Shown here: positions 2,532 through 62,973 of the stretch, one piece after another | Layout: the number at the start of each line of letters is the position of its first letter | Numbering within the stretch: position 1 is the stretch's first letter | Assembly (NCBI GenBank): GCA_016788785.1 | Contig: JAEUSM010000013.1 | Coordinates: forward strand, 56,771-120,770 | Source of the DNA: Candidatus Kapaibacterium sp. | GTDB taxonomy: Bacteria > Bacteroidota > Ignavibacteria > Kapaibacteriales > JAEUSM01 | Direction of reading: 5' to 3' | DNA length: 64,000 bases | The notes under the pieces: generated by a model | Databases searched by the model: none | Seen by the model: the letters and a program-made list of their open reading frames with translations, nothing else | Told to the model about the DNA's origin: nothing | Position numbers and translations under genes: made by a program

Positions 2532-2643
2532 AATTTCTTAGCAATACTTTGTAGCCAATCTTGGCTATATGTGTTATAATAGTTGAAAATTGATTATTTT
2601 AAAAATTAAATTCAGTAATTCTACCACTAATTTCAACATTGTT

Positions 2644-4098: not shown

Positions 4099-4100
4099 TA

Positions 4101-9442: not shown

Positions 9443-9465
9443 TTATACATCCTTTATAAAATAGA

Positions 9466-24247: not shown

Positions 24248-25216
24248 CTATCGAATGAAGAAAAACCAAAGTAATATTGCAACAATAGTCGCTGCTGTTG
24301 TTCTGATTGCGACATCTTTTCCTAATGCTCGAAACGAAACTGCTGTTTCTAATTTTGCATCAAAGGAAAGAACAGTTGCATTTAATAAGACTGGATAAAA
24401 CAGCAATAACGTGTACCACATTCTATCAATTATTGAATGAGAATTATAGGATAATAATTGAGGAATAAGAGTGCTAATAGCAAGAATTACTATGAAACTT
24501 AGGATGTAGAGTGCTGTTTTTATCGTTGGTTTGGTTGTAATGTACAAAAAGTAATTGCATAACAAAAATATCATCAGCAATTTTGTTGAAGAACTAACAG
24601 AAAACGGAAATTGTACTTCGAAAGATGATATTAAGGGTATATTTTGAAATACCAAGACAGCAATAATAACCGAAATTGCAACAGGAACAATCGCTTGGAG
24701 TCGATATTTCCACGGATTTTGTTTATAGATTGTCAGTGATGATAGAACCAACAATACCAAAAGAATATGTGCTTGAGGCACTACTACTGATAATAATGAG
24801 ATAAGTACGCCAAGAAAAACTCCTTTTGTTGTAGTAGGAACTAACATATAATTGAACAAAAGGTGCAAATAGACTATTAAAGCAGCATACCAAGCAACCA
24901 AATGCCCACACTCTTGTAAAGAACGAATCAACGTAACGTTCGTGGAAAATCCAAGCGTTGTAAGTCCCAGAACAGAAAAGTATTTATATCGTAAACCTTT
25001 ACTAAAAGTCGCACTATAAAAAAACTTTGACGTCAATAACACTGTTATGATGAAAAGCCCTACATTTCCGGCAACCATCATCACCGAATAATCTTGCGAT
25101 GGCATTGTAGCAAAAGTAATGATACTTACTACAAGAAGAACTAATACAGAAAGTAGATAAAAACCTTTGACTAAAAGTTTTTTGGTTTTTTGACTTGCTG
25201 AACCTTTTATTGACAT
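24248..25216 (-). CDS. polytopic integral membrane protein (8-10 predicted TM helices), unknown function
   Basis: The 322-aa protein is hydrophobic throughout and lies immediately downstream of the CrtC-like gene and divergent from the GT2 gene. A CruF-like role is speculative. Confidence 0.55.
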   Translation of the reverse strand: MSIKGSASQKTKKLLVKGFYLLSVLVLLVVSIITFATMPSQDYSVMMVAGNVGLFIITVLLTSKFFYSATFSKGLRYKYFSVLGLTTLGFSTNVTLIRSLQECGHLVAWYAALIVYLHLLFNYMLVPTTTKGVFLGVLISLLSVVVPQAHILLVLLVLSSLTIYKQNPWKYRLQAIVPVAISVIIAVLVFQNIPLISSFEVQFPFSVSSSTKLLMIFLLCNYFLYITTKPTIKTALYILSFIVILAISTLIPQLLSYNSHSIIDRMWYTLLLFYPVLLNATVLSFDAKLETAVSFRALGKDVAIRTTAATIVAILLWFFFIR

Positions 25217-25287: not shown

Positions 25288-26442
25288 ATGATATTATACT
25301 ATCAATTAGCAATCACAGCCGCATTATTGATCTTTTTTGGAATTGCAATTCGGAATCTATTCTTATTCCCAAAAATAAAGAAATCCAATACGAATACAAA
25401 TATACGGACTTTCCCAAAGGTTTCCATCATGGTACCTGCCAGAAATGAGGAAAAATCAATTCAAGCATGTGTCGAATCATTACTTTCGATGGATTATCCA
25501 GATTTTGAAGTTATTGTCTTAAATGACAATTCTACTGATGCTACTGGGTCAATTTTAGAATCTATTGTAGAACGATATCCTGAAAAACTAACTGTCATCA
25601 ACGGAACTCCACTTCCACAAGGATGGGTAGGGAAACCATGGGCTTGCCATCAATTGTCGCAACATGCTAAAGGAGAATTATTGCTATTCACAGATGCAGA
25701 TACAGTCCATTCATCAGAATCTTTACGTGCCGTTGTAGAATACTTTCTGACAGAAAAAGTAGATTTTGTATCAATGATTCCATACGAAAAGATGGACACT
25801 TGGGGTGAGGCAACCATTATTCCTATGATACATTATTTATATTTTGCATATTTGCCGAATGATTGGATAGCAAAAAAACCGTCAGTGTCGGTTTCAGCGG
25901 CAAATGGGCAATATATGTTTTTCAAATCTGAGGTTTATCGAGCTATCGGTGGGCATACTGCCGTCAAAAACAATGTTGTTGAAGATGTTTTTTTAGCTCG
26001 AACAGTGAAAAAAGAAGGATACATAACAGGATTGATAAATGGATCGGAAATAGTTACATGCAAAATGTATTGGAATTTCAAAGAAACGTTTGAAGGATTT
26101 TCGAAAAACTTTTACCCTGGAATGTCCTACAGACCATTTGCAATGTTTACTTCTATTACACATTTTTTTCTGCTTTATATTGCTCCCGTAATTTTTCTAA
26201 TATTTGCTTTAGTAACTCAAAACTTCTCATTTGAACTATTTTGGTTGCCCTTACTACATTACACAATCTTTACAACTATTCGGGGGATAATAACCTATTC
26301 TTTTTCTATGCCAATCTATCAAATGTTTCTTCATCCATTATGTGCGGCTTTAGCCATTGGAATTGGCATCAATTCGGTTCGATGGTCTCGCTCCAAAATT
26401 CAATGGAAGGGAAGAAGTTATTCCAAAGAAGAAACGATTTAG
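25288..26442 (+). CDS. family 2 glycosyltransferase with C-terminal transmembrane extension (CrtQ/CruC-like architecture)
   Basis: The GT2 core is 'VSIMVPARNEEKSIQACVESLLSMDYPDFEVIVLNDNSTDATGSIL', with a 'DAD' motif in 'LLFTDADTVHSS'. The last ~100 aa form several TM helices, an architecture typical of carotenoid/diaponeurosporenoate glycosyltransferases. Confidence 0.75.
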   Translation: MILYYQLAITAALLIFFGIAIRNLFLFPKIKKSNTNTNIRTFPKVSIMVPARNEEKSIQACVESLLSMDYPDFEVIVLNDNSTDATGSILESIVERYPEKLTVINGTPLPQGWVGKPWACHQLSQHAKGELLLFTDADTVHSSESLRAVVEYFLTEKVDFVSMIPYEKMDTWGEATIIPMIHYLYFAYLPNDWIAKKPSVSVSAANGQYMFFKSEVYRAIGGHTAVKNNVVEDVFLARTVKKEGYITGLINGSEIVTCKMYWNFKETFEGFSKNFYPGMSYRPFAMFTSITHFFLLYIAPVIFLIFALVTQNFSFELFWLPLLHYTIFTTIRGIITYSFSMPIYQMFLHPLCAALAIGIGINSVRWSRSKIQWKGRSYSKEETI

Positions 26443-27671
26443 TGCAAAAATGATCGAATAATTTCGCCAATACGTTGCGATTCGCCAATGGATGGTTGAA
26501 AAATTTCTTCAATTCGATTTCTATTTAATTCTATCCATTCCTTTTCTGTCAAAACTTTTAGCAACATTGTTTCAACTTCTACTTTATTACGAACGATGCA
26601 AAGAACACCTGCTCTTTGAAACGTGGTAGCATCAGGAGAAGAGCTGACATTTGGTCCACAAAACGTTGGTATGCCATACGCAATTGCCTCAGCTGTTGAA
26701 TGCACGCATCTTCCAAATCCTCCCCCCACAAAAGCAACACTTGCAATGCTATATAACGAAAGCAATTTTCCTACAGTATCGACAATTACTATTTGATTAT
26801 CAACTATTTCCTCTTGCCGAAGTTGAGAAAGGAGTACTGAGTTAGGAAATACTCCTTGTAAACGCTCAATTGTTGCATTGTCTGGTTTATGGGGTACAAT
26901 GATACAATGAAATTTATCTAACAAATCAGAAGAAATTGAATGAAGGAGCATCTCTTCATCTTTCCACGAACTTCCCAATACTAACGTTGGTTTTTGTGGT
27001 AAAGTGTACCAACGTTCTACCTCATATGTTCGAACTTTTTCAATAATTCTATCAATGCGTGTGTCAGCAGATCGATGTACATTGGAACTTTCAATCAATT
27101 GAGTGAATTTATCGAAGTTTTGCTCATTGACAGCATAAATTCCTTCAGCATTTGACAGTAGTTTTTTCAAAAATGAACGTCCGATTGACTCCCAAAACCA
27201 ACTATTGGGAAATGTTGCATTCACATAAAAGTATGGAATTGATTTTGCAGAGAGTAGTTGTAGTAGATTAGGCCATATTTCATAGCGAATAAATACAACG
27301 ACGTCAGGATGAACCTTTAAAATAAATTGTTCCATTCCACAGATAGTATCTATAGGAATATAGGTGATAACATCCGCAAATGGATAGTTTTTTTGGTTAT
27401 CGTACCCAGAAGGTGAAAAAAACGTTACGAGAATGGAAAGTTGCTTCTCTTTTGAACGAATGTATTCTATAATAGGTTTAGCTTGTTCAAATTCCCCCAT
27501 TGAAGCAGCATGAACCCATAGAACTTTTTGATTGGCTGGAATTATAGATTTTTTTTTCGCAAATTCAAAGATTACTTTTTCACGAGATTTGAATTCTGCA
27601 AAAAACAAAGCCCCAATTTTGAACAAAAGCCAAAGTATTGGAGCAATGAAATATGTATAGAAAAAACCCAT
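26439..27671 (-). CDS. waaA: 3-deoxy-D-manno-octulosonic acid (Kdo) transferase
   Basis: The N-terminal membrane anchor is followed by the KdtA signature 'LWVHAASMGEFEQAKPIIEYIR' (compare E. coli 'IWLHAVSVGE'). The length of 410 aa fits, as does the GT-B C-terminal half ('VDTVGKLLSLYSIASVAFVGGGF'). Confidence 0.8.
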   Translation of the reverse strand: MGFFYTYFIAPILWLLFKIGALFFAEFKSREKVIFEFAKKKSIIPANQKVLWVHAASMGEFEQAKPIIEYIRSKEKQLSILVTFFSPSGYDNQKNYPFADVITYIPIDTICGMEQFILKVHPDVVVFIRYEIWPNLLQLLSAKSIPYFYVNATFPNSWFWESIGRSFLKKLLSNAEGIYAVNEQNFDKFTQLIESSNVHRSADTRIDRIIEKVRTYEVERWYTLPQKPTLVLGSSWKDEEMLLHSISSDLLDKFHCIIVPHKPDNATIERLQGVFPNSVLLSQLRQEEIVDNQIVIVDTVGKLLSLYSIASVAFVGGGFGRCVHSTAEAIAYGIPTFCGPNVSSSPDATTFQRAGVLCIVRNKVEVETMLLKVLTEKEWIELNRNRIEEIFQPSIGESQRIGEIIRSFLH

Positions 27672-33116: not shown

Positions 33117-34661
33117 GTGGTCCATCAAAATAAGGAGAAAATCATGAAATACTTCTTTCTTTTATTATGTGCAACATCGTTATCCATTGCACAAGGAATA
33201 AATCAAAAACCTCCGTTTCTATGGGAAAACATATACACCGAAGGAATAATGAGAAGAGGAACTTTTAGGTTCTTTCATCCATTTGACCAACAATCTGTTT
33301 TAGTTATTAGTGAGCAATTAACTGATACTTCTTTTTCGCTTAGATTTTTTCAAAAGTATAATATACTTTCTGGCGAAATTGAGTGGACAAAACCCGGAGA
33401 AGTTGAAGGAAAGCCATTAGACATTCCAATCGCCCCAACTTTTTATTATCAACCGACAAAAGTTGACAATAAAATTTTGATTTCCTCATTAGCTAAACCT
33501 GCAGGTGATCTTGGCTCTACTTTTAGCTTTAGAAGGCAATTTTCTATTGATTCCGATGGAAACACTAAGTTTGAGAGGCTTTATGAAAACAACAGAGAGA
33601 TATTTAAGTCAAAACATCTTAAAGTTGTTGACCAGAATGAGTATATTTATCTTTCGGAGCTTATAAGTTCTGAACAAAATTTTTCAGATAGTACTCTTTT
33701 TAATTACGAGAAAGATGGTATAATTTCTTCTTACCCATTGAAACGCTTTTCTATGATGCATAGTTCACAATGGAATTTGTCAAATGCATGGAAAAGAGCT
33801 GATGGAAAAATTGATTTTATATTAGCGTCTTACAATGAAGATACTAATTGTATTTCATTTAGAACTCTTGATGTAGAAAAGGAAACAATATCAGATGTTA
33901 GTATTATGGGAGAAGAACTTGGTTTAACACCTGATGCATTTCTGACAGTGAGAGATTCTAAGAAAATTGACCACTATTATTATGTTGTTGTTGATGTAGG
34001 TTACTATTACGCTCCTGATAATATACTTTTAAAATTAGACCAAAATGGTAATGTGCTCAAACAAACTGGTTTTAGTGGTTACTCATCTACATGGGGTATG
34101 GAAAAAGGTCCAAATAACTCTATCATCTTGTATGGAGGTACATTTATACCAAATGAAAATCCTAACACCAAAACTAACCAATGGATTGCTCAATTTGATA
34201 CCGAATTGAATAAAATGAATGAGTTTATTTGGGGTACAAACGAAGTTGACATTACAACAGTTGCTACTTATTTTGACGGTGTAGGGTTACTTACCGGTGG
34301 TTTTTATAATAAAAACGATAAAAATTATACATGTACACCTCAAATTGGTCTCATCCCTGAATCTGTGTTTTTGGATGTGTCTTCTGTTGCTGAAAAAAAA
34401 TCAGAAACACTTACAATGCAAATTGTAGAAGATGCTTCTGCAAATTCCTCTTTAGTAGTGAATTCTAAACATCAGCAAACAGTTACTATTAATTTACTTG
34501 ATGCTAATGGAAGATTGGTATCTGTTGTTTCAACAGGAATTCTTTCAGAAGGTGAAAACCGATTTACCTTACCAACATCACTCTCGAATGGAATGTATCT
34601 GGTGAGTTGTGAGCAAAATGGTACTATACTTAGCTCTGAAAAATTCATTATCAAAAAATAG
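33117..34661 (+). CDS. secreted protein with T9SS C-terminal sorting domain, unknown function
   Basis: It has a signal peptide ('MKYFFLLLCATSLSIAQG'). The C-terminal ~90 aa ('...VVNSKHQQTVTINLLDANGRLVSVVSTGILSEGENRFTLPTSLSNGMYLVSCEQNGTILSSEKFIIKK') resemble the Por secretion tail. An ATG at 33144 is an alternative start. Confidence 0.6.
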   Translation: MVHQNKEKIMKYFFLLLCATSLSIAQGINQKPPFLWENIYTEGIMRRGTFRFFHPFDQQSVLVISEQLTDTSFSLRFFQKYNILSGEIEWTKPGEVEGKPLDIPIAPTFYYQPTKVDNKILISSLAKPAGDLGSTFSFRRQFSIDSDGNTKFERLYENNREIFKSKHLKVVDQNEYIYLSELISSEQNFSDSTLFNYEKDGIISSYPLKRFSMMHSSQWNLSNAWKRADGKIDFILASYNEDTNCISFRTLDVEKETISDVSIMGEELGLTPDAFLTVRDSKKIDHYYYVVVDVGYYYAPDNILLKLDQNGNVLKQTGFSGYSSTWGMEKGPNNSIILYGGTFIPNENPNTKTNQWIAQFDTELNKMNEFIWGTNEVDITTVATYFDGVGLLTGGFYNKNDKNYTCTPQIGLIPESVFLDVSSVAEKKSETLTMQIVEDASANSSLVVNSKHQQTVTINLLDANGRLVSVVSTGILSEGENRFTLPTSLSNGMYLVSCEQNGTILSSEKFIIKK

Positions 34662-37064: not shown

Positions 37065-37973
37065 TTAAGAAAGTACTGTTTCTGGTTGTTTTTCTGAAAT
37101 TACTTTTGGAACTTCTTCAACAGGTACCTGATTTTTTATCCATGTTTTGTTGTTTGGATCCATTAAATCTTTCGGTACCGGACGAAGTTTCCAAATCAAA
37201 CCTAACCAAGATAACACCTTCAGACCATAATAGGTGATGTCAATTTCATACCAAAAGAATCCATTTCGAGCGGAAGCTTGAAAACGGTGGTGATTGTTGT
37301 GCCATCCTTCACCTAATGTAACCAATGATAGAATGAAGTTGTTTCGGCTTGTATCAGTGGTTGAATAACGACGTTTACCCCATGTATGTGATAACGAGTT
37401 AATAGTAAAAGTCCCATGCCACAAAAACGTAGTAGCAATAGCAAAACCCCAAAGTAATCCTGGCCATCCGAAAATGAGCGTAATTGCAATCGCATAGGTG
37501 ACAGGTGCAATTTGCCAGTATTTATTCAAAAATACTAACTCTGGAAACTTCATAAAATCACGAATCAACGCTTCATTATGTTGTTTGTAATCTGGAGATA
37601 GAACCCAACCTGCATGAGAATGCCAAAAACCACCATATTTAGGAGAATGGATATCACCTTCTAAATCAGAATGAGCATGATGATGACGATGATGTGATGC
37701 CCACCATAACACTCCTTTTTGGGAAGATGTCATCGCCATAAACGCCAAGAAAAACTGAAACCAACGTGAGGTTTCATAGGTTTTATGGGAAAAATAACGG
37801 TGATAAGCACCAGTAATAAAAAACATACGTAAATAATACGAACCAACTGCCAAACCAACATACCACCAGTGAAAGTCGATAAAAAAGGCTATAAAACATG
37901 ATAAATGAATTCCCCAAAATAACAAGGTGCTATTTTGAGTTAGTTGGTACGGAATGTACTTTTTGAGTGACAT
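37065..37973 (-). CDS. acyl-CoA (stearoyl-CoA-type) delta-9 fatty acid desaturase
   Basis: The three His boxes are present: 'HRYFSH', 'HHRHHHAHSD' and 'HNNHHRF'. The protein has four TM helices and is 302 aa long. Confidence 0.85.
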   Translation of the reverse strand: MSLKKYIPYQLTQNSTLLFWGIHLSCFIAFFIDFHWWYVGLAVGSYYLRMFFITGAYHRYFSHKTYETSRWFQFFLAFMAMTSSQKGVLWWASHHRHHHAHSDLEGDIHSPKYGGFWHSHAGWVLSPDYKQHNEALIRDFMKFPELVFLNKYWQIAPVTYAIAITLIFGWPGLLWGFAIATTFLWHGTFTINSLSHTWGKRRYSTTDTSRNNFILSLVTLGEGWHNNHHRFQASARNGFFWYEIDITYYGLKVLSWLGLIWKLRPVPKDLMDPNNKTWIKNQVPVEEVPKVISEKQPETVLS

Positions 37974-38180
37974 AATTTTTTTTACAGAAAAATGTAAAAG
38001 TAAGTAGCTTGTGTTTTACAAATATACAATCTTCATTTGAATTTTAGTAATAATTTCATGAATTTATTGCGTTGTATTTTGATAAATAGTAGACGTTTCA
38101 ACTGTGAGATAATTATCCCTTAAAACACTAAAGACCAATATATTCGTTATATTTTGTTGTTTCAAATCAAGAACCGTTGA

Positions 38181-39659
38181 ATGAATTCAAATACAGAACA
38201 ACCGAAACTAATTACCAAACTTCAATTTGTTGATCTTGATGGCACTTTGATCACTTCAGACTGCCTTTGGGAAACCTTTTTACTATTTCTTAAAAAGAAC
38301 CCTTTTAATGGTCTAATTGCTATTTGGTGGTTAATTTCTGGTGGAAAAGCTCATTTGAAACATTCAATTGCAAAAAATGTCACTTTACAACCTTCACTTC
38401 TTCCATACAATCAAGATGTAATAGAATTTATAAAGGTTCAAAAAAGTTTGGGAGCTACCATTGTTTTGGCTACTGCAACGAATAAAAGCATTGCTAATCA
38501 AATTGCTGAGCATATTGGCTTATTTGACGATGTGATTGCTTCAGATGAAACAACGAATGTTCGTGGTTCAACCAAGAAGGAACTCCTTACAACCTACGCA
38601 AATGGTCAAGAGTATGTCTATTATGGAAATAGTACGGTAGATCTTCCAGTTTGGTCAGGATGTAACCATGCTATAGTTGTTTCTTCATCACAAAATTTGG
38701 TTCAGAAAGCATCTTTAGATGGAAAAGAAATATATCATATCCCAATCAACTCTTCATTTTTTCCAGCATTAGTAAAACAAATGCGAATATATCAATGGGT
38801 GAAAAACAGCTTAATTTTTATTCCGTTGTTTTTAGCACATAAGGTTAGTATTGATTTGTGGATTGATGGTTTGTTAGCGTTTTTTGCTTTCGGTTTTGCT
38901 GCATCAAGTGTTTATGTTGTCAATGATTTATTGGATTTAGAATCTGACCGACAACATCACCGCAAAAAAAATCGTCCATTTGCTTCTGGTGTGTTATCTA
39001 TTCCATTCGGAATTGCATTATTTCCTTTACTATTGGTGATTGCATTTTCAATTTCTGCAGTGTTGTTGCCACCATTATTTACGTTATTCTTGGGTATTTA
39101 TCTTGTCATTACAACCCTGTATTCCTTTGTGTTAAAAAAGATTGTAATGATAGATGTGCTGACTCTTTCATGGCTCTATACCCATAGAGTATTTGCAGGA
39201 GCAGTTGCAACAGATACTCCTATTTCTCCATGGTTACTACTTTTTGCTATCTTTCTATTTCTTTCTTTAGCATTTGTAAAACGTTACTCTGAACTTTTAG
39301 TCGCAGTTGAACAAAATAAAACGAAAGCATCAGGCAGAGGGTATTTCACGTCCGACTCACCGTTGATTGCAAGTGTTGGACCGGTGAGTGGATATTTGGG
39401 AGTTTTTGTCTTCTTTTTGTATATTAACTCCCCAGAAGTAGTTGCTCTGTATTCTTTTCCAATGCTCTTGTGGCTGGTAGGACCATTGTTACTGTATTGG
39501 ATTTCGCGAATTTGGGTAATAACCATTCGTGGCAATATGCACGATGACCCAATTGTTTTTACTATGAAAGATCCTGTGAGCTATTTCATTGGTTTTTGTA
39601 CATTTCTCATAGTTACTTTAGCAAGCATTCTTCCTAAACTTACTTTTTTTACACGATGA
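38181..39659 (+). CDS. fusion protein: N-terminal HAD-superfamily phosphatase + C-terminal UbiA-family polyprenyl-phosphate phosphoribosyltransferase (Rv3806c-like)
   Basis: The N-terminus carries HAD motif I 'LQFVDLDGTLITSD'. The C-terminal ~300 aa are polytopic and carry the UbiA motif 'VVNDLLDLESDRQHHRKKNRPFASG' after 'QWVKNSLIFIPLFLA'. The gene is operonic with a DprE1 orthologue. Confidence 0.7.
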   Translation: MNSNTEQPKLITKLQFVDLDGTLITSDCLWETFLLFLKKNPFNGLIAIWWLISGGKAHLKHSIAKNVTLQPSLLPYNQDVIEFIKVQKSLGATIVLATATNKSIANQIAEHIGLFDDVIASDETTNVRGSTKKELLTTYANGQEYVYYGNSTVDLPVWSGCNHAIVVSSSQNLVQKASLDGKEIYHIPINSSFFPALVKQMRIYQWVKNSLIFIPLFLAHKVSIDLWIDGLLAFFAFGFAASSVYVVNDLLDLESDRQHHRKKNRPFASGVLSIPFGIALFPLLLVIAFSISAVLLPPLFTLFLGIYLVITTLYSFVLKKIVMIDVLTLSWLYTHRVFAGAVATDTPISPWLLLFAIFLFLSLAFVKRYSELLVAVEQNKTKASGRGYFTSDSPLIASVGPVSGYLGVFVFFLYINSPEVVALYSFPMLLWLVGPLLLYWISRIWVITIRGNMHDDPIVFTMKDPVSYFIGFCTFLIVTLASILPKLTFFTR

Positions 39660-40216
39660 ACCAAGTATATTCATCCATTGAAGCAGGATTGGAACAACCA
39701 CAATTGGTTTCTTCCTTGCAGTTGTCAAAACAACGATTAGAAATTTTGCCTACTTCCATTGGTGCATTTACAAATCTGACACTGCTCAATCTTTGGCTTA
39801 ATAATCTAACAACATTACCCGAGGAGATAGCTCAGCTGCACTATCTTATAACCATTGATATAAGTAATAATAATTTTTTGACATTTCCAGAAGTATTATT
39901 TTCTGAAGGTCTTCAAAATCTAAAAAACATCAATGCCCGATTTTTACAATTAGAATCACTTCCGTTAGATATACAAAAGATTACAAAATTGGAAAGTTTA
40001 GACCTTACGGGAAATAAATTAACATCTTTACCTGAGGAAATTGGGAATCTGGAACATCTTTCGATGCTTCGATTAAATCAAAACCAAATACAAACACTTC
40101 CAAAGTCATTACAACATTGTAAGAAGTTGAAAGTTTTACATATTCAGAATAATCCCATTGTAAGTAAAGAAGAAATTCAGTCATGTGTTCCTGAAACGTG
40201 CGTAATCGTATTTTAA
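39656..40216 (+). CDS. small leucine-rich-repeat (LRR) protein
   Basis: The 186-aa protein has about six LRRs ('LTLLNLWLNNLTTLPEEI', 'LESLDLTGNKLTSLPEEIGNLEHLSMLRLNQNQIQTLPKSL'). Its start overlaps the upstream stop (ATGA at 39656) and its 3' end overlaps the DprE1 gene start by 19 nt. Confidence 0.6.
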   Translation: MNQVYSSIEAGLEQPQLVSSLQLSKQRLEILPTSIGAFTNLTLLNLWLNNLTTLPEEIAQLHYLITIDISNNNFLTFPEVLFSEGLQNLKNINARFLQLESLPLDIQKITKLESLDLTGNKLTSLPEEIGNLEHLSMLRLNQNQIQTLPKSLQHCKKLKVLHIQNNPIVSKEEIQSCVPETCVIVF

Positions 40217-41523
40217 CAATGTCGCATCAATCGTGGGGAAGAATTCCCAAAGTTCAACAAGAAGTCGAAACAATTCTTTGGAAAGAAGAGATAGCACATG
40301 TTATCGTTTCTCATTCCAATATCTTGCCGTATGGTAAGGGAAGAAGTTACGGAGATTCCTGTCTCAATGACGGCAATACTATTGCAGATTTGTCAAATCT
40401 TAATCGGTTTATCGCTTTTGATGCAGAACAAGGAATTTTGCAGTGTGAAGCCGGAGTAACCTTTGCTGAAATAATTGACACATTTCTTCCTAAGGGTTGG
40501 TTTTTACCTGTTACGCCGGGAACAAAATATGTTACCGTTGGAGGAGCAATCGCCAATGATGTTCATGGGAAAAATCATCATGTGGAAGGCACAATTGGAC
40601 ATCATATTCAATCGTTGTCCTTGCTTCGATCTGATGGTCAAATAAAAACCTGTTCAAAAACAGAAAATGAAGAATTGTTTCGAGCAACTATTGGTGGGTT
40701 GGGTCTCACAGGATTTATACTCACTGCTACTATCAAGCTCAAAAAAGTAACCAACGAATATTTTGCATTCGAAAGTATCAAATTCAAAGGAATAGACGAC
40801 TTTTTTACCATCAATGAAGAGTCAGAAAAAAACTTCGACTATACTGTTTCTTGGATAGATTGTAGTTCCACCGGAAAAAAACTAGGTCGTGGGATTTATA
40901 TGCGTGGAAATCACTCGACTACCCAACATCCTCCACTACCATTCAAAAAACCATCGCTCAAATTTCCCATAGAAGCTCCAACATGGCTTTTGAATGAAAC
41001 GGCTATAAAAGCATTTAACTTCCTCTATTATCACAAACAACTTTCAACATTTGTCAAAAAAGAAGTGCCGTATAATCCATTTTTCTACCCTTTGGATTTT
41101 ATTTTAGAATGGAATAAAATGTATGGTAGCGTTGGGTTTTATCAGTTCCAATGCGTCATTCCATTCGGTGACGAACGCAGTGGAATTAAAAAACTTCTCT
41201 CCACAATAGCCGAATCGGGAAAAGCTTCGTTTTTAGCAGTACTAAAAACCTTTGGCACTAAACCGTCAGTGGGTATGATGTCCTTCCCATCACCAGGGGT
41301 TACCTTAGCTCTTGACTTCCGCAATGATGGCGAATCTACTGTTCAATTACTGCACCAATTAGAGGAGATAGTTGCCTCATACAATGGCAAAATGTATCCT
41401 GCGAAAGATGCAACCATGAGACCAAAATTTTTCCAACAATTTTACCCACAATGGGAAGAATTTTCACGATTCAAAGACCCAAAAATTAGCTCTTCATTTT
41501 GGCGTAGAGTAACAAACCAATAA
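40198..41523 (+). CDS. dprE1: decaprenylphosphoryl-beta-D-ribose 2'-oxidase-like FAD-dependent oxidoreductase (DprE1 orthologue)
   Basis: Strong collinear motif matches to M. tuberculosis DprE1 run along the whole protein. They include 'SWGRIP', 'YGKGRSYGD', 'LPVTPGTKYVTVGGAIANDVHGKNHH', 'ATIGGLGLTGFILTATIKL', 'FYPLDFILEWNKMYGSVGFYQFQCVIP', 'GKASFLAVLKTFG' and 'NGKMYPAKD'. Confidence 0.85.
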   Translation: MRNRILTMSHQSWGRIPKVQQEVETILWKEEIAHVIVSHSNILPYGKGRSYGDSCLNDGNTIADLSNLNRFIAFDAEQGILQCEAGVTFAEIIDTFLPKGWFLPVTPGTKYVTVGGAIANDVHGKNHHVEGTIGHHIQSLSLLRSDGQIKTCSKTENEELFRATIGGLGLTGFILTATIKLKKVTNEYFAFESIKFKGIDDFFTINEESEKNFDYTVSWIDCSSTGKKLGRGIYMRGNHSTTQHPPLPFKKPSLKFPIEAPTWLLNETAIKAFNFLYYHKQLSTFVKKEVPYNPFFYPLDFILEWNKMYGSVGFYQFQCVIPFGDERSGIKKLLSTIAESGKASFLAVLKTFGTKPSVGMMSFPSPGVTLALDFRNDGESTVQLLHQLEEIVASYNGKMYPAKDATMRPKFFQQFYPQWEEFSRFKDPKISSSFWRRVTNQ

Positions 41524-41546
41524 TATCTTATACTTTTTGTAGTATT

Positions 41547-42395
41547 TTGAAAATTATTTCGTATATTTGTAAAACATTTATTACGAAAGATGGAAATATG
41601 GGAAACAATTTTAATCCTGATGCGTTCAAACGACTCAATGATTTGGCAGTGATGCTCTATGGTGGTTTACCGGAAATAGCTCGTCATATGGGTAAAGCAC
41701 ATACGTATTTCTATACGTATAAGAACAAAAATGCAAGTTTTGGAAGTAAATTCTATGCTGAATTGGAAAACAAGGCTGGGATTAGTGCAAAATATATTCA
41801 ATATGGAATAGGAACTCCATTTGCCGAAACGGAAATGGGCTCAATGTTGCGTGCAAAATACGAAGAAGAAATTAAAAATATGATTGACCTTGACGAAGAA
41901 GCTTCATATTCTGTTCGTAAAGACAATTCCTCTCAAAATAATTTTTCTGCTGCATCACTGAAAGAACTCTTTGAAGCAACTCCACCGCCATTTTATGTTC
42001 CTGAAATGTTATTTAGTTTGCGAGCAGGATCGCCTACTATAAATCTTTCTACGGAAGTATCTGGTTATAGAAATATGTCTGGTACCTTCATTGCTACAAT
42101 TTCTGGTGACAGTATGGCAGATTATGGAATGTCTGATGGTGACCAAATTTTGCTAAAACGTACCTCTCAGTTTCGTAATGGTGATGTGATTGCTGCTCGC
42201 ATCAATGACTCATTGACATTAAAACGTGCAAAACAAAACAACTCTGAGCTAATTCTTGTACCGGGAAATAAAAATTACGAACCTATTCCTGTTTTACCGA
42301 CTGATGACTTTGAATGCTTAGGAATTTGGGAAGGTGGAATATTTCCTTATGAAGTGGTAAAAAAACTACGTCGTTGGGAAGAAAATCCTTCTTAA
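41547..42395 (+). CDS. S24-peptidase (LexA/CI-like) repressor with non-LexA N-terminal domain
   Basis: The C-terminal catalytic domain 'ISGDSMADYGMSDGDQILLKRTSQFRNGDVIAARINDSLTLKRAKQ' has the Ser-Lys dyad spacing of LexA ('VSGDSM...VKRLKK'). The N-terminal ~180 aa are unrelated to the LexA winged helix. An alternative start is 'MGNNFNPD' at 41598. Confidence 0.7.
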   Translation: MKIISYICKTFITKDGNMGNNFNPDAFKRLNDLAVMLYGGLPEIARHMGKAHTYFYTYKNKNASFGSKFYAELENKAGISAKYIQYGIGTPFAETEMGSMLRAKYEEEIKNMIDLDEEASYSVRKDNSSQNNFSAASLKELFEATPPPFYVPEMLFSLRAGSPTINLSTEVSGYRNMSGTFIATISGDSMADYGMSDGDQILLKRTSQFRNGDVIAARINDSLTLKRAKQNNSELILVPGNKNYEPIPVLPTDDFECLGIWEGGIFPYEVVKKLRRWEENPS

Positions 42396-42455
42396 GACAC
42401 GTTTCTTTTTTCTAAACCGTTCTTATAACATACTATATACGACACACCATCAAAA

Positions 42456-43772
42456 GTGTGTCGTAATTTTTTCTATTCTTTTTTTCATTTTCGAATGGGC
42501 GATACTTTTTCACAGTTTGTTAAGACATTTTCCTCAAAAGTTGATGAACAAGAAAAAATATCCTACATTGTTTCTATAACAAATAATCAAGATGATTTTT
42601 CACCATCCGGTGAATTGGAAATGTCTATTTGTAAATTTTATCTCAATAACACAAAACAGTTTTCACCTTCACTCGAACATCTCAAATTTTTACTTCGAAT
42701 TGCTAACATTTATTATCATTACAAACAGTTTAATGATAGTTTCACATTGTTGAAGAAAATTGAAAATCTTGCTAAAAAAAATTCTTTGCAAGAGATTGTA
42801 AATCTATCGTATTCTCTTCATGCCTTGCTTGCAATTGAACGAGGAGATTATCCTTTTGCTTTGCAATCTATGTTACAGTCAAAACCGATAATTGAAGCGA
42901 GTAATAATCCTTTGCGAATTTCTACTCTTAATAACAGTTTGGGAGTTATCTACTATCATTTGGGTGATCTCAATCAAGCGTTAGAGTATTATAAGCAATC
43001 TCTTTACAATAAGGAGGAACAAAACTATTCCTCTCAAGATTGCATCACCTTGATGAATATTGCTACAATATATATTCAACAATCTGATTTAAACTGTGCA
43101 AAAGATTATGCACTAAAATCACTTTCTGTTGCAGAAAAATTAGATATTGGCAATCTAATAGCGTTGACAAAGAACAAACTTTCTACTATTGTATCGCTTC
43201 AAAAAGACTTTCAATTAGGTCTTCAATTAGCCAATGATACGATAACATATTACGAAAAAAATGGACCACTGTTAGATTTATCTTTTTCATATATTCTTCG
43301 TGCAGACATTACTCGTGAATTGAAGGCACCATTAGAGGCACTTTCTGATTTGAATAAAGCTTTGGATATTGCATTACAATTGAACAATCTTAATTTAGAA
43401 GGTTCCATTATGCGATCTATGGCAATGGTGTTTTTAAATGATTTACAAAAATTTGAATCCGCTTTACGATACATTCAACGGTATTACGAGATTTACAAAG
43501 ATTCTGAGTTCAAAGAACATTGGTTGCAATCTCATTTTTTGTATGCGTTGTATTATTCAAAATCTCAACAACCAAAAAAAGCACTTCAATTTATTTCCAT
43601 TGCATTAGAAGATAAAGATATCGATCAATGGATTTCTTGTAAAATTGATTTTTTAGAGTTAAAATTGCAACTGAATCATTTTTTGTCTTTAAGTGAACGC
43701 AAAAAAACTGAAGAAGTTTTGACGCAAAGTAAAGAAATCTACAAAAATTCGTATAAACCACAAACAATCTAA
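42456..43772 (+). CDS. TPR-repeat protein
   Basis: There are multiple TPR-like units ('LNNSLGVIYYHLGDLNQALEYYKQSL', 'LMNIATIYIQQSDLNCAKDYALKSL'). The start is uncertain because several in-frame ATGs occur. Confidence 0.5.
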   Translation: MCRNFFYSFFHFRMGDTFSQFVKTFSSKVDEQEKISYIVSITNNQDDFSPSGELEMSICKFYLNNTKQFSPSLEHLKFLLRIANIYYHYKQFNDSFTLLKKIENLAKKNSLQEIVNLSYSLHALLAIERGDYPFALQSMLQSKPIIEASNNPLRISTLNNSLGVIYYHLGDLNQALEYYKQSLYNKEEQNYSSQDCITLMNIATIYIQQSDLNCAKDYALKSLSVAEKLDIGNLIALTKNKLSTIVSLQKDFQLGLQLANDTITYYEKNGPLLDLSFSYILRADITRELKAPLEALSDLNKALDIALQLNNLNLEGSIMRSMAMVFLNDLQKFESALRYIQRYYEIYKDSEFKEHWLQSHFLYALYYSKSQQPKKALQFISIALEDKDIDQWISCKIDFLELKLQLNHFLSLSERKKTEEVLTQSKEIYKNSYKPQTI

Positions 43773-50934: not shown

Positions 50935-52974
50935 TTACTTCCCCTTTTCCAACCAAAAGGTATTCATTGTTCCTTTGCCTTTTATGGAAATTTCTCCTCT
51001 GGGTATGAGTGAGAATTCTGGGTATGATTCGATTGATTTTGCAAATTGTTCGCTGATGTGGATACGACCAGCTTCTGAGTTAGATTCCATACGTGAGGCT
51101 ACGTTTACTGCATCTCCCCAGAGGTCATAGGTGTATTTGTTTTTGCCGATGATACCTGCAACGACTTCACCTGTGTGGATTCCAATGCGAATTTCGATAT
51201 CGTTCATATCCTTTATCCAATTGGTATCACCCAAATCTGATGGAATATTGACGACAAAGTCTCGCATTGTTATGAGAAGTTGGAGTGCAGCTTGGGCAGT
51301 TGCTTTTTGGTGATTTTCGAGGGGAGTTGTTACATTGCCTACTGCCAAATACCCATCACCAATGGTTTTGATTTTTTCTAAACCGAATGTTTCAACCACT
51401 TCATCCGCTTTTTGGAAGATAGCGTCAAGAAGATAAACAATTTGCTTTGGTGGTGCAATCGAGGCAAGTGACGTAAACCCAACCAAATCCATAAAAAGAA
51501 CAGAAGCAGTTTCAAAGTGGTCGGCAATAGGATTTTCGCCCTTTACTAAGCGATCAGTTACAGAATCAGGAAGTATATTTCGAAGAATACTTTCACGTTC
51601 TTCGTATCTTGCTCTTTCAACAGCTATTTGTTTTTCACGTTCAGCTGTTTTACGTTCATTGTCAAATCGATCTGCTTGTTTTTTTGCTTCGATGGATTGA
51701 ATTTCTTTTTCGAGTGCTATAGATTTAGTTTGAAATTCTAAAGCTTCTTTATAATGTTCTTCGTTTAGTCTAAGCTTATGTAATTGTTCATAAGCTTCTT
51801 TTCTTACAACTTTTGCACCTATTTCCTCAGCTAAAACTAACGATTTTTGAAGATACACTTCTGCTTTTTTTACATCATAGTATGTTGATTCTTTGGTTGC
51901 ATAAACAGACCCAATATTCCCAAGGTTACTTGCAATACCGACTTTATTCCCAATTTCTTCATTGATGTGAAATGCTTTTGAGTAATACTCTATAGCTTTG
52001 GGGTAGTCCGAAAGACTCTTGTAAACAATCCCAATATTCCCAAGGTTTATTGCAATCCCAACTTTGTTTCCAATTTCTTCATTGATATGTAATGCTTTTG
52101 TATAATACTCTAATGCTTTGGGGTAGTCTGAAAGATTCCAGTAAACAATCCCAATATTCATAAGGTTAGTTGCAATTCCAACTTTATTCCCAATTTCTTC
52201 AAAAATAGGTAATGCTTTTGAGTAATACTCTAATGCTTTTGGGTAGTCCGATAGATTAGAATAAACATTCCCAATACTCACAAGGTTACTTACAATTCCT
52301 AATTTGTTTCCAATTTCTTCAAAAATAAGTAATGCTTTTGAATAATACTCTAATGCTTTGGGGTAGTCCGAAAGATCTGAGTAAACAAGCCCAATATTCC
52401 CAAGGTTAGCTGCATTACCATATTTACTTCCAATTTCTTCACCGATGTGTAATGCTTTTGAGTAATACTCTAATGCTTTGGGGTAGTCCGAAAGATAATT
52501 ATAAACATTCCCAATATTCCCAAGGTTACTTGCAATACCAACCTTGTTTCCAATTTCTTCTAATATGAGTAATGCTTTTGAATAATACTCTAATGCTTTG
52601 GGGTAGTCCGAAAGATCTGAGTAAACAAGCCCAATATTCCCAAGGACACTAGCAATACCTCTTTTGTTTTCAATTTCTTCAGAGATAAGCAATGACTTTG
52701 AAAGATACTCTAATGCTTTGGGGTAGTCCGAAAGATTCCAGTAAACAATCCCAAGTGAATTATAGACCTCTGCAAGAGATTTGGCATCGTCTTGGATTGC
52801 TTGTTGTTCCAAGAGTTCGTAAGCAAATACCTTTGCTTCTTGATTTTGAGAAGTTCTCCAAAGATTATCTAATTTTTCTTTTGCTTGTTGTATTTCTTCG
52901 GGTGTCATTACGGTTTTGGAAGGTTGCATTGGATTTTGTCGTACGAATATACAAAAATAACGACATTCAGCCAC
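50935..52974 (-). CDS. TPR-repeat class III adenylate cyclase (paralogue 3)
   Basis: The 679-aa protein has a catalytic domain almost identical to that of 13925..15898 ('ILPDSVTDRLVKGENPIADHFETASVLFMDLVGFT...IKTIGDGYLAV...RIGIHTGEVVAGIIGKNKYTYDLWGDAVNVASRMES'). It contains about seven near-identical 40-aa TPR units. Confidence 0.85.
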   Translation of the reverse strand: MAECRYFCIFVRQNPMQPSKTVMTPEEIQQAKEKLDNLWRTSQNQEAKVFAYELLEQQAIQDDAKSLAEVYNSLGIVYWNLSDYPKALEYLSKSLLISEEIENKRGIASVLGNIGLVYSDLSDYPKALEYYSKALLILEEIGNKVGIASNLGNIGNVYNYLSDYPKALEYYSKALHIGEEIGSKYGNAANLGNIGLVYSDLSDYPKALEYYSKALLIFEEIGNKLGIVSNLVSIGNVYSNLSDYPKALEYYSKALPIFEEIGNKVGIATNLMNIGIVYWNLSDYPKALEYYTKALHINEEIGNKVGIAINLGNIGIVYKSLSDYPKAIEYYSKAFHINEEIGNKVGIASNLGNIGSVYATKESTYYDVKKAEVYLQKSLVLAEEIGAKVVRKEAYEQLHKLRLNEEHYKEALEFQTKSIALEKEIQSIEAKKQADRFDNERKTAEREKQIAVERARYEERESILRNILPDSVTDRLVKGENPIADHFETASVLFMDLVGFTSLASIAPPKQIVYLLDAIFQKADEVVETFGLEKIKTIGDGYLAVGNVTTPLENHQKATAQAALQLLITMRDFVVNIPSDLGDTNWIKDMNDIEIRIGIHTGEVVAGIIGKNKYTYDLWGDAVNVASRMESNSEAGRIHISEQFAKSIESYPEFSLIPRGEISIKGKGTMNTFWLEKGK
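51895..52765 (-). repeat. about seven tandem copies of a 120-bp (40-codon) repeat inside the adenylate cyclase 3 coding sequence
   Basis: The 120-bp unit 'caatttcttc...aatgcttttgagtaatactctaatgctttggggtagtccgaaagat...gtaaacaa.cccaatattcccaaggtta.ttgcaat.cc.a.tttgtttc' recurs with roughly 85-95% identity. Each copy encodes one 'NLGNIG.VY.(N/D)LSDYPKALEYYSKAL' unit. Confidence 0.85.
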
Positions 52975-53404: not shown

Positions 53405-54217
53405 TTATTGTTGTTCCCACCATGTAAGGTCGATAGAATCTTCACCTCCGTCAACACCAAGTACTGTTCCATTGATCCAGGCAGCTTCTTTTTGAGAAAG
53501 AAGTACTAACACATTGGCAACATCTTCTGGAGTTGTCAATTTGTGGAAAGGATTGCGGTTGTATGCATTAGCTATCAATTTGTCATTTCCTGGAATTTTG
53601 CGAAGTGCCGGTGTGTCAGTTACTCCTGCTCGAATAGTATTGCAGGTTACATTGTATGGAGCTAATTCTAACGCCAATTGTCGTGTGTACGACTCCAAAG
53701 CCGCTTTTGCTGCAGAAACCGCACCATAGGTAGGTATTGCACGATTAGAGCCAGAACTTGTAAGAGATGCTACACGCCCACCTTGAGAGAACAGACCTGC
53801 AGAAATGAGATCTTGTGTCCAATAGATAAGCGAATTAGCCATCACATCCATTGTCATTTCAATACTTTTTTGGGTAATAGAATCAGTTGGTTTTTCAGCA
53901 ATGAATGGTTTCAATGTTCCAAACGCTAATGAATGTAACATAAACCAAACTGCTCCACCAGTTTGATTGCAACGATTTTTGATTGCTTCCACAACGGTTG
54001 CACGGTTAGTAGCATCAGCAGCATTCACATTGAAAAATTCAGCTGTAACACCTTTTGCAGTTATTTCTGTTTTTAATTCTTCGACCGCTGCCAAACCTGC
54101 CGCTCTATCTAAATGAACACCAATGATGTGATATCCTTTTTCCGCCAATGCCAAACAAGCCGCTTTACCAAAACCGCTTGAGGCTCCTAAAATGACCGCA
54201 TATAATGGTGTACTCAT
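53405..54217 (-). CDS. short-chain dehydrogenase/reductase (SDR) family oxidoreductase, enoyl-ACP-reductase-like
   Basis: The dinucleotide-binding motif is 'AVILGASSGFGKAACLALAEKGYHIIGV', and the catalytic region contains '...YGAVSAAKAALES'. The start is taken at 'MSTPLY', while the ORF maximum is 54265. Confidence 0.7.
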   Translation of the reverse strand: MSTPLYAVILGASSGFGKAACLALAEKGYHIIGVHLDRAAGLAAVEELKTEITAKGVTAEFFNVNAADATNRATVVEAIKNRCNQTGGAVWFMLHSLAFGTLKPFIAEKPTDSITQKSIEMTMDVMANSLIYWTQDLISAGLFSQGGRVASLTSSGSNRAIPTYGAVSAAKAALESYTRQLALELAPYNVTCNTIRAGVTDTPALRKIPGNDKLIANAYNRNPFHKLTTPEDVANVLVLLSQKEAAWINGTVLGVDGGEDSIDLTWWEQQ

Positions 54218-54305
54218 TCTCAATCTTTCTATGTCTAAAGGTATAATTTTGAAATATATATACAAAAATACAAAGATTCTATCAAAATAGAAAGTTTATA
54301 GAAAT

Positions 54306-60996: not shown

Positions 60997-62973
60997 TTAT
61001 TCAACTATTTCTTCGTGATTTTTGGGTAATGAACATAAAATTCTCCAACCCTCACGTATTAGTTTCATAGTCTTTTCAATTTCATTTTCTTCCAAAGGAT
61101 TATCTACCAAATCAATGGTTATATCTTTGTTCGTTCGTTGTTGTGCAAATTTTGGAAGTTTTCGAAGTTCATTTTTTGAAATATACACAAATTCCAATTT
61201 GGGAAAATTTTGTATTTCAATTAAACTAATCTGATTATTTGAGCAAATCAATCGTTGAAGCCGTGAAAATTTCTTTCCTTTGAGTTGCACCTCCTGAATT
61301 GAATTGGAGCTAATGTCTATGACTTCAAGAAGTTTACATTCTAAAAGTTCATTCGGAAAAAATTCTAAAGAACATGAACGCAATGAAATGGAATGCAACT
61401 GTTTACAATGGAGTAATGGTGCAACATTCGTAAGAACTTCATCAGTGATTTGTAATGATTTGAGAGATGGTAGTTTTTCAATACCATCAAGTAATTGAAT
61501 TCCTGTTGACCGCAACGCAAGTGAATGTAATTTTTTTGAGACCACTCCAATTTCTGTAATATTTGATAGTGCAAACCCTGCAATAGTTACTTCTTCTAAT
61601 GAGGTATTCGAAGAGAATTGAATGGAATGCAAAGACGAATTCAAATTGAAATTTTCCAAAGAAAGTTTTTTGAGAGAACGAATTTTCGTGATTTTTTTAT
61701 ACAAATCATTAGAAAATTCGTATTCTAATTGAGAAATCGAAATCGAACAACATTGAGGAAATTTCATTCGATACATTGGTGAGTTTTTCGAAGGAACGAT
61801 TTTTACATCTGAAATAAGAAGGAATTGCAATTTCGGCAGCGATTCTATCAAGGTACAAAAATCTTGTTCTGATATTTCGCAATGAAGTAAGGACAAATAT
61901 CTAACCGAAAGGAGTGTTGAAGCAGTAAACGAGAAAATTTCACAATGTTGTACGGACAGGTATTGCAATTCATTCAATGATTTCAAATTCTCAAGTTTCA
62001 GAGTCAATGCATCAATATTTTTCATCACAATTCCGGAAATTGTTTCGAAAAATTCTGGTCGAAATTGCTCCTCCACTAACGAAGCAACCACCATCGATGC
62101 TTGTTTGGAAGCTAATAATTCTTGTGTTGTTGGTATGGTTGTAAGCTGGTATGCAGTCTCTTGAAACAATTGACCATTCATAGACACTGTTTCTAAAAAA
62201 GCAGAAACATCGTGAAAAAACTTTGGATTGTAGCTGTATTTCGTGGGTTGTTTGAACCAATGCAATCGCAAAGCATCTTTTTGTTCATCATTGAGATATT
62301 CTTTCAAATATTCTCGAGCTTGTAATCGAATTGCTTTCGAGCTTCCGAAAAGTTCTAATGCAAAGAGTGATGTCGTGATTTCATCTATTGACAAATTGTT
62401 TTGTTGGTTGGATTGCTGAAGAACTGAATTGACAAATTCTTTGACAACCAGTACATTTGTTTGAATTTGTTGAATTGAATACCGTTCAAAATATCGTTTT
62501 AGATGATATTCAACCGTCATCGGGAGTCCAAGATGTGTACACAATGACAACTCTTTTTCATTTGGTCGAACACCTAAAAGAATATGAGAATAGCGTTCTT
62601 CATTCTTTTTGGAGAAATGCTCAATGTTCCAACCAAGAGATTGTACCATTTGTTGTATAGATGGTAAGGAAAAACACAAAAGATTCCCGCAGATACCAAT
62701 GAAAACAGTATCGTTGTTAGACAGATTTTTGAAAGGATTTTCTAAAAGAAAACTCAATGAATTGAGAGCATGTGTTGCATTTTGAGCATTCCCAATTGAT
62801 AAGATTTCCAATTGTTGTTCAACGGAGGTTACTGATTCGGTGTAAACTGGATTGTAAAATTCGTCGGAATTGAAAAACGGTTGGAACGATGAATGTTTGG
62901 AAACACCCCTTCTGTTTTTTTCTTTGTATTTTGAGCGATAATCGTTGACAAATGGGTCAGGAAACTTCGACAT
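60997..62973 (-). CDS. large cytoplasmic leucine-rich-repeat protein
   Basis: The C-terminal ~300 aa contain more than ten LRRs ('LKSLQITDEVLTNVAPLLHCKQLHSISLRSCSLEFFPNELLECKLLEVIDISSNSIQEV', 'LQRLICSNNQISLIEIQNFPKLEFVYISKNELRKLP'). The N-terminal ~350 aa have no recognised domain. Confidence 0.6.
   Translation of the reverse strand: MSKFPDPFVNDYRSKYKEKNRRGVSKHSSFQPFFNSDEFYNPVYTESVTSVEQQLEILSIGNAQNATHALNSLSFLLENPFKNLSNNDTVFIGICGNLLCFSLPSIQQMVQSLGWNIEHFSKKNEERYSHILLGVRPNEKELSLCTHLGLPMTVEYHLKRYFERYSIQQIQTNVLVVKEFVNSVLQQSNQQNNLSIDEITTSLFALELFGSSKAIRLQAREYLKEYLNDEQKDALRLHWFKQPTKYSYNPKFFHDVSAFLETVSMNGQLFQETAYQLTTIPTTQELLASKQASMVVASLVEEQFRPEFFETISGIVMKNIDALTLKLENLKSLNELQYLSVQHCEIFSFTASTLLSVRYLSLLHCEISEQDFCTLIESLPKLQFLLISDVKIVPSKNSPMYRMKFPQCCSISISQLEYEFSNDLYKKITKIRSLKKLSLENFNLNSSLHSIQFSSNTSLEEVTIAGFALSNITEIGVVSKKLHSLALRSTGIQLLDGIEKLPSLKSLQITDEVLTNVAPLLHCKQLHSISLRSCSLEFFPNELLECKLLEVIDISSNSIQEVQLKGKKFSRLQRLICSNNQISLIEIQNFPKLEFVYISKNELRKLPKFAQQRTNKDITIDLVDNPLEENEIEKTMKLIREGWRILCSLPKNHEEIVE

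Follow-up and report, generated by a model that had tools for sequence, protein, structure and literature searches.

Lipid-linked pentofuranoses are the product of a gene module that is known from the mycobacterial decaprenyl-phospho-arabinose (DPA) pathway (Rv3806c/Rv3790/Rv3791), from the pilin D-arabinofuranose (D-Araf) genes of Pseudomonas aeruginosa PA7 and from three-component pentofuranosylation systems (PMC11127046). The three-component system of Citrobacter youngae ORF15 consists of a polyprenyl-phosphoribose synthase (PPPRS), a flippase and a glycosyltransferase of the GT-C type (Kelly et al. 2024, PMC11127046). ORF15 has been characterised biochemically; it makes polyprenyl-phosphate-ribofuranose (polyprenyl-P-ribofuranose) from phosphoribosyl pyrophosphate (PRPP), and its HAD domain strips the 5'-phosphate (PMC11127046). 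For the synthase family nine transmembrane helices have been reported and the roles of the HAD and UbiA motifs have been described, while the location of the oxidase and reductase steps (DprE1 and DprE2) is still debated for mycobacteria (PMC11127046). Here we analysed a stretch of 64,000 nucleotides of Candidatus Kapaibacterium sp. (contig JAEUSM010000013.1; hereafter the window), in which a synthase gene and a DprE1-like oxidase gene of this module flank a small gene for a leucine-rich repeat (LRR) protein at positions 39656-40216 of the plus strand. The module itself is known. The LRR gene that is wired into it is a new, lineage-specific add-on, and full-text searches of the literature found no LRR gene in such a module.

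The LRR gene encodes 186 amino acids (aa). Its product matched the Pfam families LRR_8 (57.1 bits; cutoff 27), LRR_14 (59 bits; cutoff 40) and LRR_4 (55.5 bits), with E-values near 1e-15, whereas no catalytic family and no family of short-chain dehydrogenases/reductases (SDRs) was matched in Pfam and NCBIfam. The AlphaFold2 model, built from an alignment of 25 sequences, is a single-domain solenoid with a mean predicted local distance difference test score (pLDDT) of 97 and a predicted template modelling score (pTM) of 0.92. The solenoid consists of seven strand/helix repeats, each with one short strand and one helix, between N- and C-terminal caps, and the repeats are in register at residues 18, 41, 64, 89, 112, 135 and 158. 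Both hallmarks of the LRR superfamily are thus present, i.e. tandem repeats above the gathering thresholds and a curved solenoid with a concave parallel beta-sheet. An earlier annotation of this DNA from its letters alone, which we call the sequence-only reading, had described a 186-aa LRR protein without catalytic motifs embedded in the operon, and this description holds.

The top Foldseek match of the model was Leptospira LIC12234 (4TZH; template modelling (TM) score 0.89, 35% identity), followed by further Leptospira LRR proteins and then by the eukaryotic proteins SHOC2 and Rsu1 (TM score about 0.8). LRRC57-like proteins rank among the best sequence matches. The LRR protein has no hydrophobic N-terminus, and it is predicted to be cytoplasmic because a signal peptide, a lipobox, a transmembrane segment and the C-terminal domain of the type IX secretion system (T9SS) are all absent.

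The LRR gene is joined tightly to the genes on both sides. Its ATG overlaps the TGA of the synthase gene as ATGA (39656-39659). The sequence-only reading had proposed overlaps at both ends; the overlap at the start is real, but at the stop, ATG 40219, which lies 2 nt past the TAA of the LRR gene, is the most probable start of the oxidase. We assign this start because it agrees with the N-terminus of the family (consensus YQSWGRYP in an alignment of 17 oxidases) and with independent gene calls on related contigs, and because the relative L012 (L numbers are our locus labels) has an oxidase without any upstream extension. The alternative start, GTG 40198, is merely the first in-frame start after a stop and is unsupported.

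The tight coupling of the LRR gene to its neighbours, which had also been proposed, was confirmed in the relatives. In the window the two junctions read ATGA (synthase/LRR) and TAAcaATG (LRR/oxidase); the corresponding junctions are TAATG and TAAaatATG in L012, and ATGA and TAGaATG in L008. Hence, the spacer from the LRR gene to the oxidase gene has remained at 1-3 nt in three diverged lineages, although synonymous sites are saturated. Tight junctions on both sides that are kept in relatives are the pattern of translational coupling, and we infer that the LRR gene is co-transcribed with both enzyme genes.

The relatives were found as contigs from metagenomes and metagenome-assembled genomes (MAGs) (L004-L014, including GCA_041688645.1 and GCA_041689575.1). 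Database searches returned few LRR orthologues, with 89%, about 66% and 59% identity, and beyond these generic LRR proteins of at most 37% identity. Every orthologue occupies the same slot between synthase and oxidase, in a fully syntenic neighbourhood, and the protein keeps a length of 185-186 aa throughout the lineages. Because the neighbouring proteins are 57-95% identical between the LRR-bearing lineages and synonymous sites are saturated, these lineages, at least three in number, are species- to genus-level relatives rather than strains. Compared with the closest relative (L006), the LRR gene had a ratio of non-synonymous to synonymous substitution rates (dN/dS) of 0.17, and the oxidase gene one of 0.10. 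The LRR gene is under purifying selection. The synteny check that the sequence-only reading had suggested therefore argues against a strain-specific insertion. Two other origins were ruled out: a recent foreign insertion, as GC content and GC content at third codon positions (GC3) of the LRR gene equal those of the neighbouring genes, and recent paralogy with a large LRR protein that is also encoded in the window (60997-62973), with which it shares only 25% identity (E = 0.003).

Conservation was distributed unevenly over the solenoid. Among the solvent-exposed positions, 23 of 35 on the concave side were invariant, compared with 8 of 45 on the convex side (Fisher p = 2e-5; four lineages), and on the concave side repeats 2-5 show almost no variation. 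W47, D68, N71, R95, F96, D116, K121, R139 and H162 are among the invariant concave residues. Such a distribution would be expected if a macromolecular ligand, presumably a protein, were conserved. We propose a conserved binding partner because changes have accumulated on the convex face but hardly at all on the concave one. The suggestion that the LRR protein acts as a scaffold or adaptor is consistent with this face, but the face does not point to an enzyme of the operon as the partner.

A chance open reading frame (ORF) or a decaying remnant would be compatible with the small size of the gene and with some gene calls that carry no precomputed Pfam annotation, the only points in its favour. 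It is ruled out, with a negligible residual chance, by the Pfam E-values, the high pLDDT, the constant length, the low dN/dS and the invariant concave face. Hence, 39656-40216 is a genuine, constrained protein-coding gene.

Upstream of the LRR gene lies a HAD(phosphoribose phosphatase, PRP)-UbiA fusion, annotated as polyprenyl-phosphoribose synthase (38181-39659, plus strand; Pfam UbiA and HAD). It scored 595 bits against NCBIfam PRK08238 (cutoff 351) over residues 16-482, and its translation carries the HAD motif DLDGT, the UbiA motif NDLLDLESD and, past residue 220, about eight hydrophobic segments. All 91 of the 91 family columns that are at least 90% conserved are retained. The assigned role of this enzyme would be to make the polyprenyl-P-ribofuranose donor from PRPP.

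The synthase ends in a 10-aa C-terminal tail, ILPKLTFFTR (approximately 39627-39656), which is conserved in and specific to the LRR-bearing lineage; 41 of 45 synthase homologues have at most six residues beyond the last transmembrane helix. If the enzyme has nine transmembrane helices and its HAD domain lies in the cytoplasm, the tail should face the periplasm. Docking of the LRR protein on the tail is disfavoured by this predicted location; that the insertion produced the tail as a by-product is more likely.

Downstream lies a putative DprE1-like, FAD-dependent polyprenyl-P-ribose 2'-oxidase (40219-41523, plus strand; 434 aa from ATG 40219). It matched Pfam FAD_binding_4 (75.9 bits) and the structures of Mycobacterium tuberculosis DprE1 in the PDB (E = 1e-75), and was 50-57% identical to at least 8000 homologues across many phyla in a protein search. 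The FAD-contacting HGKNHH and the lysine of YxAKD, equivalent to the catalytic K418 of M. tuberculosis, are kept. Its score of 372.9 bits against the NCBIfam model of DprE1 (NF053785) lies under the equivalog cutoff of 500. By these matches the gene is a DprE1 homologue, but the equivalog rule of NCBI would not name it DprE1. C387 of M. tuberculosis DprE1, the site of covalent modification by benzothiazinones, is replaced by alanine.

In the oxidase, a single column with a family-wide conservation of 90% or more was changed. The pathway is judged functional because synthase and oxidase keep essentially all family-conserved residues and are under strong purifying selection. Both enzymes are intact, and we therefore regard the pathway as active and unmodified.

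We compared this arrangement with two sets of loci. Set 1 comprised the best 80 oxidase-homologue loci (47-55% identity) from a profile scan of GTDB representative genomes of many phyla; these best 80 do not include the genomes of the LRR clade itself. Set 2 comprised at least 120 low-GC metagenome loci that were picked through the DprE2 motif, using an AT-biased back-translation of VAGDRGRxSNYxYG. Among the 120 loci listed for set 2, none came from the LRR clade, and the best identities were 47% for HAD-UbiA and 54% for DprE1. All loci were processed by ORF calling, clustering, hidden Markov models (HMMs) of the module proteins and domain location.

In set 1, an SDR of 245 aa lies directly downstream of the oxidase in 70 of the 75 loci with enough downstream sequence. 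It scored 276 bits against NCBIfam PRK07102 and 162 bits against DprE2, and its name at JGI is decaprenylphospho-erythro-pentofuranosid-2-ulose 2-reductase. One of the 75 loci has the SDR elsewhere in the locus and four lack any (L048, L056, L063 and L067). The metagenome loci of set 2 show the same adjacency of oxidase and reductase. The order of synthase and then oxidase is shared with about 50 loci from other phyla, and the gap between the two genes is 0-156 nt in 37 of the 40 loci that hold both. The apparent fusions of DprE1 and DprE2 in high-GC loci, which could have served as Rosetta-stone proteins, turned out to be long ORFs produced as artefacts of ORF calling; no single frame held both domains.

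These results contradict the claim that the LRR gene stands in place of DprE2. Because the DprE2-like SDR elsewhere lies downstream of the oxidase, the LRR gene is an insertion, made at a junction where accessory genes are tolerated, and not a replacement in the position of DprE2. In the LRR clade, the usual position of DprE2 is filled by an S24/LexA-like gene.

Accessory genes were also found at this junction in other lineages. A GtrA-like gene of about 130 aa with four transmembrane segments occupies the slot between synthase and oxidase in at least 13 loci of set 2; the match to Pfam GtrA_DPMS_TM (PF04138) was checked on three of them. In many low-GC organisms (including those of L109, L120, L146, L153, L155, L157, L162, L164, L197 and L204), a short UbiA-type synthase with a weak match to the HAD-UbiA profile over about 300 residues goes with such a GtrA-like gene in the slot, which gives an operon of synthase, flippase, oxidase and reductase. 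The module has further insertions. In L052, synthase and oxidase are separated by a polytopic membrane protein of 587 aa (8218-9978), and in L198 a 560-aa polytopic membrane protein lies between oxidase and reductase (3133-4815); both are possibly GT-C proteins, with no significant Pfam match. In L099, a GMC oxidoreductase and a small protein with a twin-arginine-like N-terminus lie between oxidase and reductase (1225-3041). In four Bdellovibrionota/Oligoflexia loci (L016, L037, L053 and L057), a tetratricopeptide repeat (TPR) protein of about 340 aa consistently stands beside the module, a second association with a repeat protein.

The sequence-only reading was right that a DprE2-type reductase does not accompany the oxidase, and that this is unusual. 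From 45 oxidase-adjacent SDRs we built a DprE2-like HMM, against which true members score 340-408 bits and share an invariant S-V-A-G-D-R-G-R-x-S-N-Y-x-Y-G block. In six-frame translations of the 64-kb window and of the 21-kb loci L001-L014, nothing scored above 36 bits, and a 3.6-kb extension at the right end of the window held no SDR. The window encodes a single SDR (53405-54265, minus strand), which is distant and FabL-like, as had been noted. It was ruled out as the missing reductase, since it scored 35.9 bits, is about 25% identical to DprE2-like proteins and shows a housekeeping-level conservation of 93-95% identity between relatives. We also searched with the DprE2-like SDR beside P0106, which is among the closest oxidase homologues outside the clade; the best 120 matches were all Ktedonobacteria-like. 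Because oxidase and synthase are intact and the pathway is judged active and unmodified, a reductase encoded elsewhere in the genome is the simplest expectation.

Alternatively, no DprE2-type reductase would exist anywhere in the clade. The LRR protein would then take over a non-catalytic role of DprE2, such as stabilising or localising DprE1, or recruit a non-homologous reductase, or else the 2'-keto lipid would be the end product. Such a loss would account for the lack of a DprE2-like gene in the window, its extension and the loci of the relatives, in a module where adjacency is otherwise the rule, and within the set the LRR gene was found only in a lineage without an adjacent DprE2. However, the four comparison loci without an adjacent reductase, of which L048 is another Kapaibacterium, have neither an LRR gene nor another substitute; ordinary housekeeping genes fill the place of the reductase. 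Because these four lineages lack both, unlinking of the reductase does not require an LRR protein. Moreover, the oxidase has not diverged from homologues that are partnered by DprE2, and the absence was seen at the scale of the locus rather than of the genome. We consider a compensated loss of DprE2 unlikely. Still less probable is a new non-catalytic subunit of the lipid-linked pentose epimerase system, in which the LRR protein would replace the structural partnership of DprE2 with DprE1, either anchoring the soluble oxidase to the synthase in the membrane or bringing in a non-homologous reductase; even with both variants taken together, we give this idea little credence.

We propose instead that a gene for a small cytoplasmic LRR protein was gained in the ancestry of a single narrow clade of Candidatus Kapabacteria (Bacteroidota; Fibrobacteres-Chlorobi-Bacteroidetes (FCB) group) and that it landed exactly between the polyprenyl-phosphoribose synthase and the DprE1-like 2'-oxidase. 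These two enzymes would start the synthesis of a lipid-linked arabinofuranose-type donor. The start codon of the LRR gene shares nucleotides with the stop codon of the synthase gene, and the oxidase gene begins just past the LRR stop; the LRR protein, transcribed with both enzymes and translationally coupled to them, would therefore be made in step with them. This non-catalytic protein may bind another protein via its nearly invariant concave beta-sheet face. The likeliest partner would be a component of the pathway, either the oxidase (a soluble enzyme), or the HAD domain that the synthase exposes to the cytoplasm, or the unlinked reductase, and the LRR protein could act as an adaptor or regulator that keeps the soluble steps at the membrane-bound synthase. 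Dedicated LRR scaffolds are known in SHOC2 and Rsu1. The chemistry of DprE2 would not be replaced by the LRR protein, and the keto intermediate would most likely still be reduced by an enzyme encoded elsewhere. Its position carries weight because genes inside the module elsewhere are often plausible parts of the pathway, such as the GtrA-like flippases and the polytopic proteins. A link to the pathway is plausible, and we favour the adaptor tentatively, at somewhat less than even chance.

Several observations weigh against an adaptor of this pathway. Genomic position is the only link between the LRR protein and the enzymes. An HMM of the Kapabacteria LRR protein had no match in 200 of 200 other module loci, which indicates that the pathway does not need it. 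The LRR gene is the fastest-evolving gene of the operon, with 59-66% aa identity versus 75-84% for the enzymes, and one of the fastest-evolving in the neighbourhood. Lineage-specific substitutions that might mark an interface are nearly lacking, as one conserved column is changed in the oxidase and none in the synthase, and the sole lineage-specific feature of the enzymes, the C-terminal tail of the synthase, is predicted to be periplasmic.

The confinement of the LRR gene to one narrow clade and its fast evolution relative to the neighbours would also be expected of an unrelated hitch-hiker, which we regard as almost as likely as the pathway adaptor, though it too falls short of an even chance. 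Such a gene would have a conserved partner and a function unrelated to pentofuranose-lipid synthesis, for example as a signalling or protein-turnover adaptor. It would have landed in a permissive junction of a constitutively expressed operon and been kept by borrowing the expression of that operon. The mixed housekeeping surroundings (lysine aminotransferase, desaturase, S24/LexA-like gene, Tricorn protease) would suit this explanation, as would the S24 gene after the oxidase, likewise without an obvious role in the pathway, and a region rich in TPR and LRR repeat-protein genes. It fits less well with the exact, overlapping or nearly overlapping junctions that were kept on both sides across lineages with saturated synonymous sites, and with the plausible pathway components that often occupy the module elsewhere.

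The S24 gene encodes a LexA-like peptidase-domain protein (MBL8005069.1; Pfam Peptidase_S24) at 41598-42395 of the plus strand, 75 nt past the oxidase. It occupies the same place in all relatives and is, with 89-95% identical aa, the most conserved gene of the neighbourhood; its N-terminal 150 residues matched no helix-turn-helix family. The S24 gene may close the transcription unit of the sugar-lipid genes. A consensus scan, which provides weak evidence, found no intrinsic-terminator-like site on the plus strand of 38181-42395. A terminator-like hairpin with a T-run follows at 42438-42475 (plus strand) and is the sole such site on this strand in 37900-42600; as the number of sites is not above chance, the suggestive point is its location alone. 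A scan for sigma-70 promoters gave fewer matches than shuffled sequence, and this consensus is not meaningful for a Bacteroidota-type organism. After the S24 gene comes a TPR gene, which is intact in the other relatives (415-425 aa) but split into ORFs of 263 and 140 aa in two NCBI MAGs (L010, 5503-6750; L011, 12300-13547), a frameshift or an assembly error.

In the remainder of the window, the large LRR protein of 658 aa (60997-62973, minus strand) does have LRRs, as the sequence-only reading had stated, although in its C-terminal third only (LRR_4, 49 bits); its N-terminal region of about 420 residues matched no family. The accompanying claim that LRR proteins are unusually frequent in this region rests on 2 of about 55 genes, which are not paralogues, and the window is also rich in TPR genes. 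Three paralogous genes on the minus strand combine TPRs with a class III adenylate/guanylate cyclase (177-2531, 13925-15898 and 50935-52974), one of them with a PAS domain. The gene at 50935-52974 is missing from the syntenic place in L007 and L012, where a 297-aa gene is followed by the FabL-like SDR, and is thus a lineage-specific insertion. The only unassigned polytopic protein of the window has 322 aa, about eight transmembrane segments and no Pfam match (24248-25216, minus strand), and lies 13 kb from the synthase. It adjoins a family 2 glycosyltransferase (GT2; 25288-26442) and a Kdo transferase (26439-27671), and could be a membrane component of envelope-glycan synthesis. T9SS C-terminal sorting domains and a SusC-like TonB-dependent receptor (2590-4098, 33117-34661, 7231-8715 and 10628-12994) fit a member of the Bacteroidota/FCB and of Kapabacteria.

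The HAD-UbiA/DprE1/DprE2 module is very widespread and supplies envelope glycans with lipid-linked arabinofuranose, and the mycobacterial DprE1 and DprE2 are drug targets. A clade with an unlinked reductase and a protein-binding LRR protein in the operon would be a natural experiment on the organisation of oxidase and reductase, with a bearing on the debated location of both steps as well. To our knowledge, virtually no LRR adaptor in the bacterial cytoplasm is known to have a defined metabolic partner. If the LRR protein were indeed a subunit of the epimerase system, bacteria would have a first example of a cytoplasmic LRR adaptor dedicated to making envelope glycolipids. If it were merely a hitch-hiker, the locus would represent a gene insertion of the ordinary, lineage-specific kind, without wider consequence.

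Compared with the known systems, the Kapabacteria synthase has the same HAD(PRP)-UbiA fusion architecture as C. youngae ORF15, and the oxidase, which retains the catalytic lysine, is clearly homologous to DprE1, as in the lipid-linked pentofuranose pathway. Unlike in loci of the DprE1/DprE2 pathway, no DprE2-like SDR follows the oxidase, and unlike in the known pentofuranose modules, an LRR gene sits at the junction of synthase and oxidase. Of the further components of the C. youngae system, the GtrA-like HMM found no flippase in the window, L008 and L012, where MATE and SMR transporters were not searched for specifically, and a crude hydropathy scan of the window, run without a GT-C profile, revealed no unannotated protein of more than 400 aa with at least ten transmembrane segments. 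The LRR protein shares its fold, size (186 versus 186-190 residues) and 'typical' 23-residue repeats with LIC12234 of Leptospira interrogans. Leptospira LRR proteins are mostly secreted or located at the surface and are implicated in host binding, whereas the Kapabacteria protein lacks export signals and is encoded inside a biosynthetic operon. With small bacterial LRR proteins and with SHOC2, Rsu1 and LRRC57 it shows no orthology beyond the generic LRR family, as identity drops from 59% to at most 37% outside the clade. A flippase function is ruled out for the LRR protein, which is soluble and not homologous to the GtrA-like proteins with their four transmembrane segments; like their genes, however, the LRR gene is a small gene in the same slot between UbiA and DprE1, with tight junctions.

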